Of a stretch of DNA of 64,000 nucleotides, positions 13,705 to 42,520 are shown piece after piece (positions within the stretch are counted from its first letter, which is position 1; each line of letters begins with the position of its first letter). The DNA comes from Nitrospirota bacterium. Its GTDB lineage: Bacteria; Nitrospirota; Thermodesulfovibrionia; Thermodesulfovibrionales; Dissulfurispiraceae. The position numbers and the translations under genes were made by a program. The DNA is taken from NCBI GenBank assembly GCA_963710375.1, contig CAVPZX010000008.1, forward strand, positions 256,001 through 320,000, read 5' to 3'. The notes beneath the pieces are model-generated. The model had not been told where the DNA came from and ran no database searches. It saw only the letters and a program-made list of their open reading frames with translations.

Positions 13705-15827
13705 GAATTCTCCTCGTCGCTCCTGATGGCTGTTACCGACTGAAAAAATCGCTCAAGTTCTCTCACCGCATCAATGTTATCATAAAATATATTATTCCTT
13801 TCGAGTATCTTTATACTTATTTTCTCTCTCCAATCTGCATCGTTGGCCAGTCGCAACGCTAACTGAATGTATTGTTCGCTGTTATTGCTGATGAGATCCA
13901 TGATATCCATTTTCTTATAGTAGGCGTATGTAAAACGGCTTGCCATCCTGCTTGAAGGCCATGTTACTATCGGACAGCCGACTGAAAATAACTCCAGGCT
14001 GGTTGTGCCGCCACAAAAATAAGGTGTATCCAATACAGCATCCGCACTTCTCAAAAGACTGAGAAAATCATCGATAGGAAGACGGGGCAAAAAAATTATC
14101 CTGTCCGAAACATCAGGCATTGATCGCAAGAACCGCTCCATAAGCAAGGTGCTCCAATGCTTGTTCGCATCATCAAATAAAATGAGCAGGCCCTTATTGT
14201 CGCGTCGTAAAATCTCACCTAAGACAGCATCAAAATCCGGGTGGAATTTGATTAAGCTTTGAGGCGCAACATATAATCTGCTGTCTGCCGGCAACCCCAC
14301 CCTTCTCCTGATCTCCAGCGAGCCTGTTAATTCAACAACAGCAGGTCGATAAAAATAATTTGGCACATTTTTCATTCTGACAAGACATTCCGAGTATTGA
14401 GTTTCAGAACCCTCCGGCTCGAAGTCTTCACAGGATATAAAGTAATCCAAATTGGGTATCCCGGTTGTGTCAGGATGCCCCCATGTGACACACTGCACAG
14501 GAGCCAACCTGGAGAAAGCAAGGAAATAAGTAAAGGGGTCCATTCCGATATCAGTATAAAACAGGATATCCAGCTCACATTCGGCTATCTGCTCCCGAGC
14601 CGTTTCCAAAGCAGGAGCGAGCGACACTGATTTACCGGCATTTCGTTCTATGAATTGCGATATTTCATCGGATCTCTTTTTGCCAAAGAAAACATTGACA
14701 TTAAAAAGCTCACGGGACAGGTTCGCAATGACCCCCCGGAAATGTTTACCCATAGTATGTTCGCAAAAATAGCTCGAAATAAAACCGATCTTTATTTTTC
14801 CTGTCCTCTCAATATTCCCTCCATTTTTGCAATGCGGCGCCGTATAAAGCAGCGAAGGGCAGGCATCTGCATAAAGCTTTGCTATCTTAATCTGCAATTC
14901 CCGATTGTTGAGCCCATGATATGCCAAAAAAAAGTTTGTTTGACCAATATCCTTAAGAGGATTATTCAGGACAACACCCGATTGTAGGAAGTCATCTATG
15001 GCATGGTCAAACTGCCGGCGAAAATGCAGAACACTTTCTTTGGACGGCATGATTATCGGCGGCAGTGCTGCCAATTTTATTTTCACGCCGGCACTGTGTG
15101 TTAACTCAAATACTTTTCGGTAATGGGCCTTAGCTTCCTCAATCTTGCCCTGGTCCGCAAGCGCATTACCCAGATTGTAATGCGCCTCATGAAAATCAGG
15201 TTTTGAGGACACAGCCCTGCGGAAAAAGGGTATTGCTTCATCTATCTTCCACTGCTCTGCAAGCGCATTGCCCAGATTGAAATTAGCCATGTGCGAATCG
15301 GGTTTTAGGGACACAGCCACGTAGTAACAGGCTGTCGCTTCTACCAGCTTACCTTGCTCTTTAAACGCATTGCCCAGATTGTATTGGGCCTCGAAAGAAC
15401 GAGGGTCCAAAGACACGGCCCGGTGATAACAGGCTATCGCTTCATCCAGTTTACCCTGCTCCGCAAGCACGGAGCCCAGATTATTGAGCGCCTCGAAATA
15501 ATCCGGATTTAAAGATAATGCACGGCGGTAACAGGCAATTGCTTCATCAGGTTTAATCAAAGCTCGATACACATTGCCGGCATTATTATGATACAAAGGA
15601 ATCGCCTGATTTACATTTATCGCTTTTTCAATTAAACCGATCGCAGTTTCGTTCTGCCCAAGTTGATTGGCAATAACGCCGAGTAAGTGTAATGCGTCAG
15701 CATTGTCGGGTTGAGTCTGCAATACTTGATGATAAATAGCTTCTGCTTGTTGCAGCTCACCTTTCTGGTGGTGCTTTAACGCCAGTTGCAGTGCATCAGT
15801 AACAGCTAAGTGCTCCGGTTTGTTCAT
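13701..15827 (-). CDS. TPR-containing O-GlcNAc transferase / SPINDLY-like protein (GT41)
   Basis: About 7 TPRs, then KIKIGFISSYFCEHT, RLAPVQCVTWGHPDTTG, SLIKFHP and DTPYFCGGTTSLE. Confidence 0.9.
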   Translation of the reverse strand: MNKPEHLAVTDALQLALKHHQKGELQQAEAIYHQVLQTQPDNADALHLLGVIANQLGQNETAIGLIEKAINVNQAIPLYHNNAGNVYRALIKPDEAIACYRRALSLNPDYFEALNNLGSVLAEQGKLDEAIACYHRAVSLDPRSFEAQYNLGNAFKEQGKLVEATACYYVAVSLKPDSHMANFNLGNALAEQWKIDEAIPFFRRAVSSKPDFHEAHYNLGNALADQGKIEEAKAHYRKVFELTHSAGVKIKLAALPPIIMPSKESVLHFRRQFDHAIDDFLQSGVVLNNPLKDIGQTNFFLAYHGLNNRELQIKIAKLYADACPSLLYTAPHCKNGGNIERTGKIKIGFISSYFCEHTMGKHFRGVIANLSRELFNVNVFFGKKRSDEISQFIERNAGKSVSLAPALETAREQIAECELDILFYTDIGMDPFTYFLAFSRLAPVQCVTWGHPDTTGIPNLDYFISCEDFEPEGSETQYSECLVRMKNVPNYFYRPAVVELTGSLEIRRRVGLPADSRLYVAPQSLIKFHPDFDAVLGEILRRDNKGLLILFDDANKHWSTLLMERFLRSMPDVSDRIIFLPRLPIDDFLSLLRSADAVLDTPYFCGGTTSLELFSVGCPIVTWPSSRMASRFTYAYYKKMDIMDLISNNSEQYIQLALRLANDADWREKISIKILERNNIFYDNIDAVRELERFFQSVTAIRSDEENS

Positions 15828-29781: not shown

Positions 29782-29807
29782 CAGCTTGCCCACTAAAACC
29801 TCCAAGA

Positions 29808-29934
29808 AAAAACGAGTGAAAAGTGAATGGTGAAAGGTGAAAAAAAACTAATACAGATTGCTTCTATTGTTAAGTTTGCTTTTAGTCTTTGCTGTTAACT
29901 TTTCACTTTTCACCTTTCACTTTTTACTTGTCTT
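29808..29934. repeat. Dispersed ~127-bp inverted-heptamer hairpin element, copy 1
   Basis: AAAGTGA-type heptamers at left and TTTCACT-type at right; its reverse complement aligns along its length with 42394-42520. Confidence 0.8.
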
Positions 29935-30538: not shown

Positions 30539-30724
30539 ATTTCATATCATAGCAAATCCTCATTTTTTTGAGGAGAAAAAAGACGCAGTGAGAAGCTTTT
30601 AAGGCTGGTGTATCAAAAGGGTTCTCACAGTGGGCTTAACAATATGTGCTGCTGTCTTGGTTGCGTTATTTTCTTTCTCAATGATATTCTTTACTAAAAA
30701 TTGCGTCAGAGCGGGTGATCTTGT

Positions 30725-33700
30725 ATGAAACCACTAATGCCTCCGGGAGCAAGGCTTTTCGGACGTCATCCTGATCTTCTGCATTTATTGAATAGGGTCA
30801 CTGGAAGTGGGCTGACCGTTGTCTCCGGACGCCCAAGGATCGGTAAGACCTGGCTGATCAGGACTCTCTGCGACAATCTCGCCTCCACAAAAAACTGTCT
30901 CATAGGATATTGTGCAACCACTAGCGAGTCTGATGTTATGGGCCAATCCCTCTCAAATCTCTATTTCCGCTGGCTGGAGGATGCCACCTACCGGGAGCAG
31001 GCCCGAAGCCTGTACGAGAGGCACAAGGGAAAACTGACCGAAAAGGTAGGAACTTTCATTGGCGGGCTTTTCTCAAAGGCAGTACCTATTGTAGGAGATG
31101 CCGTAGAAAAGGGGATGCTGGCGCTCAAAAGCCTATCCGAAGACATGCGGATTGGAGGTATGCAGTTTGCCACTGTTCCCTATGAGACTGTGCATGACCT
31201 TGTCACCTCCCTGAGCACGATCATGGAAGGTCGCCCCATTCTCCTTGTCCTGGACGCCTGGGAGCAGGGACAAAACCCTAAAAGTGATTTCGGGACACTA
31301 AGAAAGTTCCTGAGCAACCTCTGGGACTGGCCGGATAATTTTCACGTGATCGTCATCATCCGCGATGAACCTAAATATACGCCATATCGTGAATTGGCTG
31401 GGGAGCTGTGCATGTCCCCTGCCGCTGAACTATTCGATCTGACTCCGATGCACCTCGATAACGATCCGGAAGAGGCTGACAGGGTTGTGAGATATATCCG
31501 TGAGCTAGCTCCTGGTGCGCAAAATATTGACGCCCGGGGGCTTCTGGAGATGGTGAACGAGAACCCGGCTGTTCTTGAGAACTGGGTAAATGCTGCGCCA
31601 CAGACAGAGGCGGCGCTAAGAAATACCGCCGCCAATGCCCATAGCAATTCATATCCTGAACTGGAGGCGATACTGTTTGGATTGTTCAAGGAGAACAAGG
31701 ACTATTTTACCGTTGCCGTCCGTCTGGCGGTTCTTTATGAGTTTACTGCTGAATCTGGATGGGAGCCATTAGCTCCTATTGTTCTAAGCAATGCGCCTCA
31801 ATATGGGCTTACTGAGCTGGAGAGCCAGGGCCTGTTGAAGGGACAGTCTCCACCGTCTTTTGGCCACACCACCCGGTATGAGGCAGCGCGGCGTTGTCTT
31901 TTTAATAATCAAAGCCTGAGGCCCTATGCCAGGGATATTACATTTGACCTGATACGCATGATTTCCGGGCAGATAAGGCAGGTCATTGAAGACAATAGAG
32001 CCTTTGCATCGGCCTTGACAGTAATTCTTTCTCCGGCGGAAAAACTAGGGCTTACTGATTTTCAGTATTACCCCTGTGTCACGGCCCGCACATTGTTTGG
32101 ATTGACCTTGAGCGAATCACACAAAAAACTCATACGAGAAAAAGCCATACTGACTGCCCAAAAAGTGCCGGAAACACGCACCCTTGTTGCCGTGGGGCTG
32201 TTCAACACTCTCAATGAAGCCAAAGAGGAGAATGATCTTCCGCGCAGGGACGCACTGCTTGATGAGCTCGACAGACTGCACACTGCCTATCCTGATGACA
32301 GCACTGTTAGAGAAAATCTCGCCAAGGGGCTTTACAACACCCTCTTTGACGCCAAGGCGGAGAATGACTTTCCTCGCAGGAACACACTGCTTGATGAACT
32401 GAGACTACTGCAAGCTGCGTATCCTGATGACGCCGCTGTAAGGGAAAATCTCGCCACGGGGCTATACAAAACCCTCATTGACGCCAAGGCGGAGGATGAC
32501 CTTCCGCACAGGGACGCACTGCTTGATGAGCTGAGACAGCTGCACACTGCCTATCCTGACGACGCCGCTGTAAGGGAAAATCTCGCCACGGGGCTATACA
32601 AAACCCTCATTGACGCCAAGGCAGAGGATGACCTTCCTCGCAGGAACGCACTGCTTGACGAGCTGAGAGCTGCACACCGCCTATCCTGATGACACCGCTG
32701 TCAGTAAATACCTCGCCAAGGGGTTGTACAACACCCTCTTTGACGCCAAGGCGGAGAACGACTTTCCTCGCAGGAACACACTGCTTGATGAAATGAGACT
32801 ACTGCACACTGCCTCTGATGATGCCGCTGTCAGGGAAAATCTCGCCAGGGAGCTATACAACGCCCTCATTGACGCCAAGGCAGAGGATGACCTTCCTCGC
32901 AGGAACGCACTGCTTGACGAGCTGAGACGGCTGCACACCGCCTATCGTGATGACACCACTGTTAGAGAAAGACTCGCTAAGGGGCTTTACAACACCCTCA
33001 ATGACGCCAAGGCAGAGGATGACCTTCCTCGCAGGAACACTCTACTTGATGAGCTAAGACGGCTGCACTCAGCCTATCCTGATGACGCTGCTATCAGGGA
33101 AAATCTCGCCAGGGGGCTGTACAACACCCACATTGACGCCAAGGCGGAGGACGACCTTCCTCACAGGAATATACTGCTTGACGAACTGAGACGGCTGCAC
33201 ACCGCCTATACTGATGACAGCACTGTTAGAGAAAATCTCGCCAAGGGGCTTTACAACACCCTCAACGATGCCAAGGCAGAGGATGACCTTCCTCGCAGGA
33301 ACACACTGCTTGACGAGCTGAGGCGGCTGCACTCCGCCTATCCTGATGACGCCGCTGTCAAGGAATGCCTCGCCATGGGACTGTACAACACCCTCAATTA
33401 CGCCAAGGCACAGGACGGCCTTCCTCGCAGGAACGCACTGCTCGATGTGCTGAGGCAGACTGCACACCGCCTATCCTGATGACGCCGCTGTCAAGGAATG
33501 CCTCGCCATGGGACTGTACAACACCCTCAATTACGCCAAGACGGAGAACGACCTTCCTTGCAGGAATGCACTGCTTGATGAACTGAGACAGACTGCACAC
33601 CGCCTATACTGATGACGCCGCTGTCAGAGAAAGACTCGCCAGGGGGCTGTACAACACCCTCAATTACGCCAAGGCGGAGGATGACCTTCCTCGCAGGAAC

Positions 33701-34091
33701 GCACTGCTTTATGAGCTGAGGCAGCTGCACACCGCCTATACTGATGACGCCGCTGTCAAGGAATGCCTCGCCAGGGGGCTGTACAACACCCTCGTTGACA
33801 CCAAGGCGGAGGATGACCTTTTTCGCAGGAACGCACTGCTTGATGAGCTGAGACAGCTGCACACCGCTTATCCTGATGACGCCGCTGTCAAGGAATACCT
33901 CGCCAGGGGGCTGTACAACATCCTCGTTGACGCCAAGGCGGAGGATGACTTTCCTCGCAGGAACGCACTGCTTTATGAGCCGAGACGACTGCATGCCGCC
34001 TATCCTGATGACGACGCTGTCAGGGAATACCTCGCCAAGGCTGGTTAACACCCTCTTTGTCCTCGGACAGAAGACAACGGCAAGTGGATGA
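30725..34091 (+). CDS. STAND/NLR-like P-loop ATPase with C-terminal 44-aa helical (TPR-like) repeat array; reading frame broken by indels inside the array
   Basis: LFGRHPDL, Walker A GRPRIGKT, Walker B LLVLDAWE, helical middle region, then repeats that continue through ORFs 30725-32689 and 32724-33479 and beyond; true 3' end uncertain (34048 or 34091). Confidence 0.8.
32186..34060 (+). repeat. Coding tandem repeat: 14 full 132-bp units plus a partial 15th
   Basis: Unit starts at 32186, 32318, 32450, 32582, 32712, 32841, 32973, 33105, 33237, 33369, 33502, 33635, 33767, 33899 and 34031; approximate consensus LAxGLYNTLxDAKAEDDLPRRNALLDELRxLHTAYPDDAAVREx. Confidence 0.97.
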
Positions 34092-34190
34092 AAAAAAATA
34101 TCAGGAGATTAAAAGGTTACAGGATGCCTCGGGGATATTCTTTCATTTCCTTAGTGCGGCACTTCCTGCTATCAGCCGGGCGCTTGCTCT

Positions 34191-34568
34191 TTATTTCATC
34201 TTTAGTATTGCCCCGATCTTCTGACACAGGACCTCAGGTGTGAACGGCTTTACGATATAACCCGTTACTTTTTCACTGATGCACTCCTCCACGCTCCCTT
34301 TTGCCGTTGTCCCCGTCACCATGATAAACGGAAGTGTTGCAAGCGAAGGCGTGCTGCGCACCCATTTCAGAAGGTCAAGGCCGCTCAGTTCAGGCATTTC
34401 CCAATCGCAGAGCACAATATCAAAATGCTCGTTCTCGAGCTTCCTTTGTGCCTCCTTCCCGGTAGCGGCTTCGCGCACGATAATGCCAGGAAAGGCCTCG
34501 ATAAGGCTGTCCTTGATAATGTCCCGCATCAGCACAGAGTCATCAGCAATAAGCAGCTTTGTCGTCAT
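34191..34568 (-). CDS. Single-domain CheY-like response regulator
   Basis: LIADDS, LCDWEMPELSG, MVTG and YIVKPF. Confidence 0.93.
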   Translation of the reverse strand: MTTKLLIADDSVLMRDIIKDSLIEAFPGIIVREAATGKEAQRKLENEHFDIVLCDWEMPELSGLDLLKWVRSTPSLATLPFIMVTGTTAKGSVEECISEKVTGYIVKPFTPEVLCQKIGAILKMK

Positions 34569-34762
34569 GTCCGTCTCTCCTCCTTCACGCTCTGGCGGTT
34601 GACCTATTGAATACTAAACACCCTCTAAGGAAATATTAGCATACTGATGTTGTTTTTACAGAAAAAATGCTGCTCTGCTAACTGTATAGCACGCGGGAAC
34701 TAACGCTCGATCTAATATTGGAGGAAAAATGGATGAAACAGTGGTGCATTTACGGGTGCTTG

Positions 34763-42393: not shown

Positions 42394-42520
42394 AAAGACA
42401 AGTGAAACGTGAATAGTGAAACGTGAATAGCAAAGACTGAAAGCAAACTAAAAAAAGAAGTAATTTGTTTTAGGTTTTTTTCACCTTTCACCTTTCACTT
42501 TTAACTTTTCACTTGTCTTT
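42394..42520. repeat. Dispersed ~127-bp inverted-heptamer hairpin element, copy 2, with perfect 14-bp terminal inverted repeat
   Basis: AAAGACAAGTGAAA (42394-42407) and TTTCACTTGTCTTT (42507-42520); core GCAAAGACTGAAAGCAAACT matches copy 1 with one difference. Confidence 0.85.

Follow-up and report, generated by a model that had tools for sequence, protein, structure and literature searches.

A 64,000-nucleotide stretch of the Nitrospirota bacterium assembly GCA_963710375.1 (contig CAVPZX010000008.1, positions 256,001 to 320,000; here termed the window and numbered from its first letter) carries a plus-strand gene whose product joins an N-terminal STAND NTPase core, with no terminal effector domain, to a sensor made of 44-residue repeats. 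Our results on this gene and its relatives, i.e. the window family, reveal that the repeats within an array are homogenised, that units are gained and lost, and that diversification is focused on four repeat positions (44, 3, 10 and 11) which lie on one face of the first helix, with the core being under purifying selection. The original prediction for the gene, made from its letters alone, was of a variable-specificity receptor; the STAND-like core, the clustering of the variable residues on one helix face and a family-wide excess of amino-acid change all support this reading. It is very probable that the protein works as a STAND switch with ligand-binding repeats.

Results

Structure and diversification of the repeat arrays

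The predicted 14 units of 132 bp are borne out both by Tandem Repeats Finder, which gives a period of 132 and 14.0 copies at 32194-34040, and by cutting the array in register. A partial 15th unit had also been proposed; there is indeed extra sequence after unit 14, but it is a short capping helix. The description of the units as near-identical was overstated, as their DNA identity is 79-93% (mean 85%) over units 2-14, with 68-80% amino-acid identity between the blocks. The variable columns read exactly as first given, i.e. N,N,N,Y,N,R,N,N,C,C,R,C,Y,Y at position 44, V,K,T,T,K,R,K,R,K,M,M,R,R,R at position 3, N,F,I,I,F,I,N,I,N,N,N,N,V,V at position 10, and E, D or Y at position 11.

At 44 residues the unit is, as had been noted, longer than the canonical 34-residue TPR, and in the model it consists of a 20-residue and a 17-residue helix. 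The repeat region matches TPR domains, e.g. 4yvq (Z 12.8, root-mean-square deviation (rmsd) 3.4, 119 residues aligned), with FLU-TPR, PlcR, STI-1 and LGN matched at Z 11.5-12.8, a range that is reachable by a common helical-repeat arrangement; Pfam TPR_14 matches the repeats at or below cut-off only. Asn occupies position 7 in 188 of ~246 units. Set in register with the TPR consensus, the repeat is presumably a TPR in which helix A is longer by ten residues, and its positions 43, 44, 3, 6 and 7 presumably correspond to TPR positions 5, 6, 9, 12 and 13. Those TPR positions lie on the concave face and contact ligands (PMC1261162), a register that would place the variable positions on the concave side of the present array.

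For the family as a whole, 41 arrays with at least four internal units (first and last units being dropped) were reduced to 35 by removal of six near-duplicates. DNA identity is above 90% in seven of these, and the median identity is 83% within arrays versus 59% between them, so the variation seen inside an array is largely of independent origin. When the array of the window is set aside, the 34 that remain have 44, 10, 3 and 11, in that order, as the most variable of the 44 positions (1 in 135,751 by chance), positions 6, 43 and 14 being the next most variable, and the four named positions are more variable than the other forty in every array (34/34). When helix A is drawn as a helical wheel, its variability is directed to one face (permutation p = 0.0013), which agrees with the arrangement first proposed. 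The associated claim that variation is concentrated at these few codons holds across the family, but less fully in the window alone, where positions 30, 23, 42, 33, 36 and 39 are more variable than position 11.

Ratios of non-synonymous (dN) to synonymous (dS) change were obtained by simple pairwise counting (ranges in brackets), with the dS of the other forty codons as the background. On this background dS, the dN of the four codons gives a ratio of 1.59 (1.30-2.00) over all 34 arrays, 2.73 (2.09-3.61) in the 18 homogenised arrays with at least 80% identity, and 2.62 (1.66-4.51) in the nine homogenised arrays on a window-type core; dN/dS at the other forty codons is 0.41-0.48 (0.47 in the 18 homogenised arrays). 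In the window the four codons have a dN/dS of 1.77 on background dS and 1.14 on their own dS, and a conservative count yields 11 non-synonymous and three synonymous steps (pN/pS 0.8 versus 0.44). The expected excess of non-synonymous change is present across the family, at 2.73 in homogenised arrays; in the window alone the signal is not above 1 by the conservative count.

Unit number differs between relatives at L034/L100 (9 versus 10) and L089/L028 (12 versus 8), and gain or loss is real in both pairs because their units are too divergent to have collapsed in assembly. In L065/L066 the core is identical and the later units differ; two other pairs are stable. Length steps of 44 residues in the P0002 cluster and in L052/L053 may be assembly collapse.

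The STAND core and its insert

The P-loop domain lies, as predicted, at the extreme N terminus, with FGR at residues 12-14, Walker A (GRPRIGKT) at 35-42 and Walker B (LLVLDAWE) at 173-180. Among the 115 relatives with a whole core, K41 and G40 are conserved in all 115, D177 in 110, R213 in 102, the Gly of the GxP motif in 101, P281 in 106 and the winged-helix H381 in 105; the GxP-equivalent of the window protein is E-N-P, with E replacing G at 279. The GxP motif and the winged-helix His contact ADP in PH0952 (PMC6468293). The helical arm is the least conserved part of the core, which overall is under purifying selection (dN/dS 0.11-0.16).

A model of the first 619 residues, including three of the 14 repeats, had a pLDDT of 89.5 and a pTM of 0.81 with 116 aligned sequences (pLDDT 78.6 with six sequences). 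Compared with 48,161 chains, its top structural match is MalT (8bob; Z 15.6, rmsd 5.1, 371 aligned), and PH0952 (Z 14.5, rmsd 7.4, 418 aligned) and resting NRC2 (8rfh; Z 13.9, rmsd 4.5, 284 aligned) are also matched; Foldseek concurs, returning PH0952 (6mfv, E 1.8e-5), MalT, Avs5 and SAMD9. The fold check suggested with the original prediction therefore gives a modelled N-terminal half that is STAND-like, with a nucleotide-binding domain (NBD), helical domain (HD), winged-helix domain (WHD) and arm, leading into a TPR-like repeat sensor. Profile matches are weaker: in Pfam, AAA_16 (E 4e-6), NPHP3_N, AAA_22 and nSTAND6 (E 0.078) match the window protein, all below cut-off, NACHT and NB-ARC do not match at E 0.1, and nSTAND1 is weakly matched, again below cut-off, in 2/17 proteins. 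No family in Pfam, NCBIfam or PADLOC is above cut-off for the window protein, and NCBIfam, a PDB sequence search and the Atlas gave no named family, only generic AAA_16/AAA_22/TPR clusters.

A terminal effector domain is usual, although not universal, in STAND proteins. All 115 whole cores begin no more than 36 residues from the profile start, with no room for an N-terminal effector in any of them, and the C-terminal tails are short wherever repeats were traced. A hidden N-terminal effector, reached through a frameshift or a split gene, was considered and rejected, as no open reading frame (ORF) recurs upstream, in any frame, in the core-start loci, or is conserved there among the family loci; the few upstream cross-hits trace to strains that are nearly identical, to the first residues of the family itself, or to text of low complexity. 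Longer fused forms were absent from 7,992 candidates of 854-2,435 residues, although the search was weak and known long relatives escaped it too. Relatives have no counterpart of a short hydrophobic open stretch that lies upstream of the window gene, and one family member (L022:9962-13675) continues in frame into an MFS transporter, probably through an assembly artefact or read-through. The statement that no effector is visible in cis is correct with respect to terminal domains, but it overlooked a conserved insert of ~70 residues in the ATPase, which could be an output.

This insert follows the strand-2 helix (residues 71-86, the ISM position by topology) and precedes the helix before Walker B. 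It is 69-80 residues long (5th-95th percentile of aligned relatives), near neutral in charge, too polar for a constitutive membrane span, and has a dN/dS of 0.12-0.13 (three pairs), similar to the core; in the model it is the only long low-confidence stretch (pLDDT 39-54 over residues 101-150). No copy of it was found elsewhere in the host genome or among neighbours. The pore at the centre of the Apaf-1 apoptosome is lined by the ISM helix, the long loop after it and the helix that follows (PMC5050015); the same ISM tip is capped in PH0952 by the TPR sensor, an autoinhibitory contact (PMC6468293). The insert data are compatible both with an output and with a latch.

Integrity of the gene

The gene is present in one copy in the host genome (3.19 Mb, nine contigs), and its frame is disrupted in units 4, 10 and 11 (Table 1). 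Eleven soil or sediment short-read runs contain part of the stretch, of which eight were compared by means of mismatch-free contigs; one of the runs may be the source sample, and two studies concur at all three break sites. No RNA run was listed among those containing the stretch. Since the array flanks of the break sites differ by at least eight bases from every other place in the array, the short-read contigs are site-specific there. The weakest site is 32664, where the bridging contig has 25 bases on its short (left) side, with overlapping contigs in three runs. The stop codon is TAA at 34046-34048, and the end coordinate of 34091 first given for the gene is wrong. An in-frame loss of three bases (one codon) in unit 5 is real, being present in gap-free contigs in four runs. 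No short-read contig spans the array, hence the order of the units depends on the assembly.

The gene is most likely intact, with the three frame breaks being assembly errors. Programmed frameshifting is unnecessary because the short-read contigs carry no breaks, and the same unbroken contigs at all three sites led us to reject a pseudogene reading of the window gene. For the wider case, i.e. a decaying pseudogene carrying a neutrally expanded minisatellite, one could cite the three breaks in the window, the division of 9/45 related loci among more than one ORF, whether through errors or decay, and a record that is 98% identical and stops at residue 370; given that the breaks are missing from the short-read contigs, that dN/dS is 0.38 at the other 40 repeat codons of the window, and that the core motifs are intact, we regard it as exceedingly improbable. 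The three errors (32664, 33459, 33592) occur at an identical codon within the unit, with CAGCTG as the context in two cases, and our guess is that their source is base modification or a dinucleotide-repeat error of long reads. A related strain in run X7 has a net 9-base deletion at 31152-31166, close to where the insert ends, 51 additional bases after the gene (34112), and many substitutions in the repeats; a joint in that run which skips 12 units was left unused, being a single contig with 53 bases on its short side.

Table 1. Features of the gene and its surroundings, in window coordinates.
Feature	Position	Strand	Basis or remark
Whole gene: effector-less STAND NTPase with 44-residue repeat sensor	30725..34048	+	1,107 residues, provided that the three breaks stem from the assembly
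NBD, residues 1-245 (boundary from the model)	30725..31459	+	motifs; conserved Arg213 after strand 4
Gly/Ala-rich amphipathic helical insert, family-specific, residues 84-152	30974..31180	+	alignment of relatives; low pLDDT
Helical and winged-helix domains, residues 246-395 (boundaries from the model)	31460..31909	+	GxP-equivalent 279-281, FGH 379-381; model and structural matches
Helical arm, HD2-like, residues 396-487 (boundaries from the model)	31910..32185	+	four helices in model
14 x 132-bp (44-residue) two-helix TPR-like repeats	32186..34030	+	variable at 44, 3, 10, 11 (then 6, 43); mostly conserved Asn at 7
Unit 4 apparent frameshift, 2 bases short	32664	+	unbroken in contigs of 4/8 runs, other four without cover; likely assembly error
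Unit 10 apparent frameshift, 1 extra base	33459	+	unbroken in contigs of 5/8 runs, rest without cover; assembly error
Unit 11 apparent frameshift, 1 extra base	33592	+	unbroken in contigs of 6/8 runs, rest without cover; assembly error
End of capping helix and stop codon	34031..34048	+	gap-free contigs of runs X1-X4
Accessory segment: STAND gene and convergent receiver-domain gene (34191-34568)	30570..34759	.	variable site flanked by a DUF2301 gene and a radical-SAM gene

Family distribution and partners of the repeat

A search of 1.84 billion representatives returned 937 hits, 312 of them at E 1e-30 or better. We examined 152 proteins (147 of the 150 listed, plus five from another search); 115 had a whole core and the 37 without one were dropped. 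Alignment-based scans located 39 loci in genomes and 79 in metagenomes, and 56 loci, or 45 after removal of 11 near-duplicates, were used for context. Named hosts fall in about ten phyla or classes, including Chloroflexota, Alpha- and Gammaproteobacteria, Acidobacteriaceae, Armatimonadota, Planctomycetota and Actinomycetota. The spread is patchy: with a single-protein query none of 67 genomes of the host's family matched (0/67), 400 genomes of its phylum gave one further strong match alongside ten short matches to Walker A, and exact-peptide scans with a single protein found nothing in genome contigs or viral contigs.

The original prediction named a core unlike STAND, scattered variation, and a fixed repeat number with a housekeeping role as findings that would tell against it. 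All three were examined; the core is STAND-like, the variation is clustered, and homologues have from 1 to 20 repeats per locus without a conserved housekeeping context. The 44-residue unit is absent from 12 of the 115 whole cores, and in P0153, P0164, P0166 and P0138 an effector-less core carries ordinary TPRs in its place; judging from these architectures, the core appears to swap sensors between ordinary TPRs and the 44-residue repeat.

The repeat, for its part, has other partners. It is fused to an Mrr-type nuclease (L028:9452-11653, with a close relative at L089:3982-6588), to TIR (L031:5227-6546), to trypsin plus nSTAND5 (L026) and to an ECF sigma factor (L081:8846-11074), with diverged forms fused to DUF4062 (P0079) and to SIR2 plus nSTAND5 (P0158). 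DUF4062 has reportedly been termed an immune NADase in a bioRxiv preprint (10.64898/2026.09.04.749371). The NTPase-free fusions (Mrr, TIR, ECF sigma) are candidate one-step sensor-effectors. Other NTPases that bear the repeat (L019:7640-12082, L026:7859-11089, L044:386-2842, L035:8474-11381, L070:3162-6254) are nSTAND5-like, with a trypsin or an unnamed helical head, or ORC/CDC6-like with a MarR-type winged helix. There are also stand-alone proteins of ~12 repeats with no other recognised domain (L025, L032, L079, L083, L096, L106, L107).

Genomic setting

The accessory segment that contains the gene (Table 1) occupies a variable site. In one other genome (G042) the same flanks lie 190 bp apart, i.e. 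the site is empty; in another (G046) it is occupied by an insertion sequence (IS)-like transposase pair; and in a third (G039) it is rearranged, the segment and the radical-SAM gene being absent. No terminal inverted repeats were found around the segment, and scanning the plus strand for promoters returned no hit. The core ranks at the 8th percentile of the genome in codon usage, while its GC content at third codon positions is ordinary, too weak a signal to date a transfer.

In the 45 de-duplicated loci there are no recurrent neighbours beyond generic receiver/kinase domains and mobile genes; the neighbour survey included 14 loci with at least 3 kb on both sides. A TIR gene (L020:2-409) and a Swt1-like HEPN gene (L074:8556-9650) lie directly upstream of family members, and L074 also carries an IrrE-like helix-turn-helix peptidase and DUF2188.

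Two further features of the window were noted. At 29806-29930 and 42396-42520, tandem GTGAAAA-like 7-mers face their reverse complements across an AT-rich intergenic spacer, the first element forming a long hairpin (-43 kcal/mol); a pattern of at least three such 7-mers has 22 matches in the genome, both strands counted, and is REP/MITE-like in appearance. A minus-strand gene of ~610 residues has a 102-bp tandem repeat at 15133-15482 and canonical TPRs, which are succeeded by what we take to be an O-GlcNAc-transferase-like domain.

Discussion

We propose that the window family comprises one-gene STAND receptors in which the repeat groove binds a foreign ligand and a ring gathers the inserts as output, a reading in which confidence and doubt are nearly balanced, with doubt slightly the greater. 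By analogy with MalT, PH0952 and Apaf-1, the resting monomer would hold ADP and be closed by the arm and the sensor. An extended peptide or protein surface would enter the repeat groove, its backbone being held by the position-7 Asn and its side chains read by positions 44, 3, 10, 11, 6 and 43, whereupon the core would open, take up ATP and assemble into a ring. The most speculative step is that the ring would bring several amphipathic inserts to its axis, at the site of the Apaf-1 ISM pore, as a membrane-damaging or partner-docking bundle; that the insert is the output is a tentative idea, which we base on this analogy. Such a bundle would halt growth of the infected cell, and unequal recombination between units would reset specificity. 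It is probable that the ligand is foreign, presumably a protein of a phage or mobile element, and whether it comes from phage could go either way. The link to biological conflict is suggested by the other partners of the repeat, i.e. Mrr, TIR, trypsin/nSTAND5, DUF4062 and SIR2. The fullest version of the proposal, in which these are undescribed, widespread one-gene immune receptors that recombine a four-position code, with the amphipathic hairpin at the ISM site as a weapon built by the ring, is rather doubtful when taken as a whole.

Several of our results weigh against the proposed receptor. When the dN of the four codons is divided by their own dS, the ratio is 1.08 (0.83-1.43) over all 34 arrays, 1.92 (1.30-3.03) in the 18 homogenised arrays and 1.46 (0.95-2.53) in the nine on a window-type core; where arrays recombine, pairwise counts are not independent of one another, and part of the signal comes from relaxed constraint at exposed sites. 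The best fold matches, MalT and PH0952, are non-immune regulators, and the ECF sigma fusion indicates that non-toxic outputs exist. The insert is no more than moderately hydrophobic, its median best 19-residue hydropathy being 1.0, with <1% of values above 1.6, and its low pLDDT could be due to the absence of a partner from the model, given that the model had 3/14 repeats and that in PH0952 the TPR sensor caps the equivalent tip. The earlier suggestion of a possible antiviral role finds no support in the neighbourhood or in defence profiles. PADLOC matched 11 of 255 neighbours of the 45 loci at E 1e-12 or better (a raw count), the Pfam-named ones being mostly housekeeping look-alikes (methyltransferase, UvrA, a luciferase-like enzyme), and a defence or mobile setting is plausible at 1/45 loci (L074); NACHT defence profiles did not match, and AVAST models (PADLOC 2023, which predates Avs6-21) had no hit in the window protein or in 19 relatives.

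The absence of a catalytic effector in cis, the TIR (L020) and HEPN (L074) genes directly upstream in 2/45 loci, and the autoinhibitory contact at the ISM tip of PH0952 would also suit a sensor-only NLR that recognises a foreign ligand and acts in trans through an unlinked helper or host effector, the insert being a docking site or autoinhibitory latch. We consider this unlikely, as the gene moves alone among distant phyla without a recurrent partner, which is hard to reconcile with a dedicated two-part system, and as an adaptor pair would need a copy of the insert, of which there is none in the genome or among neighbours. If instead the proteins were non-immune signalling STANDs of the MalT/PH0952 kind, responding to a self or environmental ligand, with the variation due to relaxed constraint and slippage, then the top structural matches, the ordinary neighbourhoods, the receiver-domain gene in the same accessory segment and the own-dS ratio near 1 over the whole array set would all be expected. 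Such a role is improbable in view of the lack of a DNA-binding or enzymatic output, the excess of dN over background dS at fixed groove positions in independent arrays, rapid gain and loss, and the predominance of conflict effectors among the repeat's partners elsewhere. A direct inhibitor or decoy, in which the array binds an invader protein and keeps it sequestered, the ATPase having only to regulate binding or to polymerise the complex, with no downstream effector, is quite improbable; it is consistent with a diversifying groove and with the existence of stand-alone proteins of ~12 repeats (L025, L032, L079, L106), but a full STAND switch, including the WHD His and GxP, under purifying selection is expected for threshold signalling rather than for stoichiometric binding.

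The theme of repeat-diversifying NLRs is already known from fungi, and that of effector-less NLRs from bNACHT01. Fungal NLRs, including the Podospora HET-E/NWD family and the NB-ARC/TPR protein Pa_2_10340, have highly conserved, positively selected repeats (PMC4986451), and share with the window family a STAND core, homogenised repeats, polymorphism in repeat number and a few positively selected codons. In the fungal proteins these codons lie on concave helices, whereas for the window family the concave side follows from the TPR register; likewise, the fungal criterion is >85% identity over at least 100 residues, compared with 68-80% at the amino-acid and 85% at the DNA level in the window. 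The window family differs further in being bacterial, in its 44-residue unit, in lacking a match to NACHT or NB-ARC profiles, in the insert at the ISM position, and in having no N-terminal HET, HeLo or amyloid domain. Bacterial NB-ARC/NACHT-TPR NLRs with high internal repeat conservation have been described in connection with Bell/BASS pairs, and diversification in the fungal manner was suggested for them (bioRxiv 10.1101/2020.01.06.895854). These too are bacterial NLR-like proteins with conserved repeats, but the window family has no amyloid motif (only about 11 residues precede FGR) and no adjacent Bell gene, extends beyond filamentous lineages, and has had its selection measured here rather than suggested. 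bNACHT01, a single-gene NACHT protein without an effector, protects against phage (bioRxiv 10.1101/2022.07.19.500537). The bNACHT01-like clade resembles the window family in being encoded by a single gene with no fused effector and a diversifying C terminus, and bNACHT01 requires its Walker A motif; however, the clade has a NACHT core and a short SNaCT domain and is found beside CBASS, whereas in the window family the core is a different one, the tandem repeat is long and a defence context is lacking.

Avs/AVAST proteins likewise combine STAND with a TPR-like sensor, and in them, as here, a sensor may be common to NTPase clades and NTPase-free effector fusions, such sharing with NTPase-free defence proteins being reported for Avs7/Dsr1 (PMC13581612). 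Avs proteins have N-terminal effectors and clade-typical sensors for conserved phage folds, in contrast to the reshuffled, homogenised sensor of the window family. In the same study, 589 STAND clades were considered and were classed as defensive by effector or neighbourhood; on present data the window family would be passed over on both counts. It was not found in the readable text of seven of the supplementary files of that study, and may still be among the 589 clades. MalT and PH0952 (8bob, 6mfv) share the NBD-HD-WHD-arm and TPR sensor arrangement, the WHD His and GxP, but have DNA-binding effector domains, ordinary TPRs and no long insert, and are 10-14% identical to the window protein in structural alignments. 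nSTAND1 and nSTAND2, as defined in PMC8195603, also differ from the window family. The class assignment of the family is STAND, and does not extend to Avs, NACHT, NB-ARC or BASS-type NLRs. No published description of the core, the insert or the 44-residue repeat was found in a search whose reach excluded most subscription papers. What appears new is the conserved ~70-residue amphipathic insert at a position that in Apaf-1 lines the pore, a candidate built-in output by that analogy.

The overall results provide a measured case, across unrelated phyla, of the repeat diversification that the 2020 BASS preprint suggested for bacterial NLRs, and with it a bacterial model, amenable to genetics, in which to study repeat-shuffling receptors. 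The family would escape any screen that requires a fused effector or a defence island, which indicates a blind spot in catalogues of STAND proteins. Through the single insert, signalling by effector-less bacterial NLRs becomes directly testable. In addition, a natural 44-residue repeat with few specificity positions is a possible scaffold for binders.

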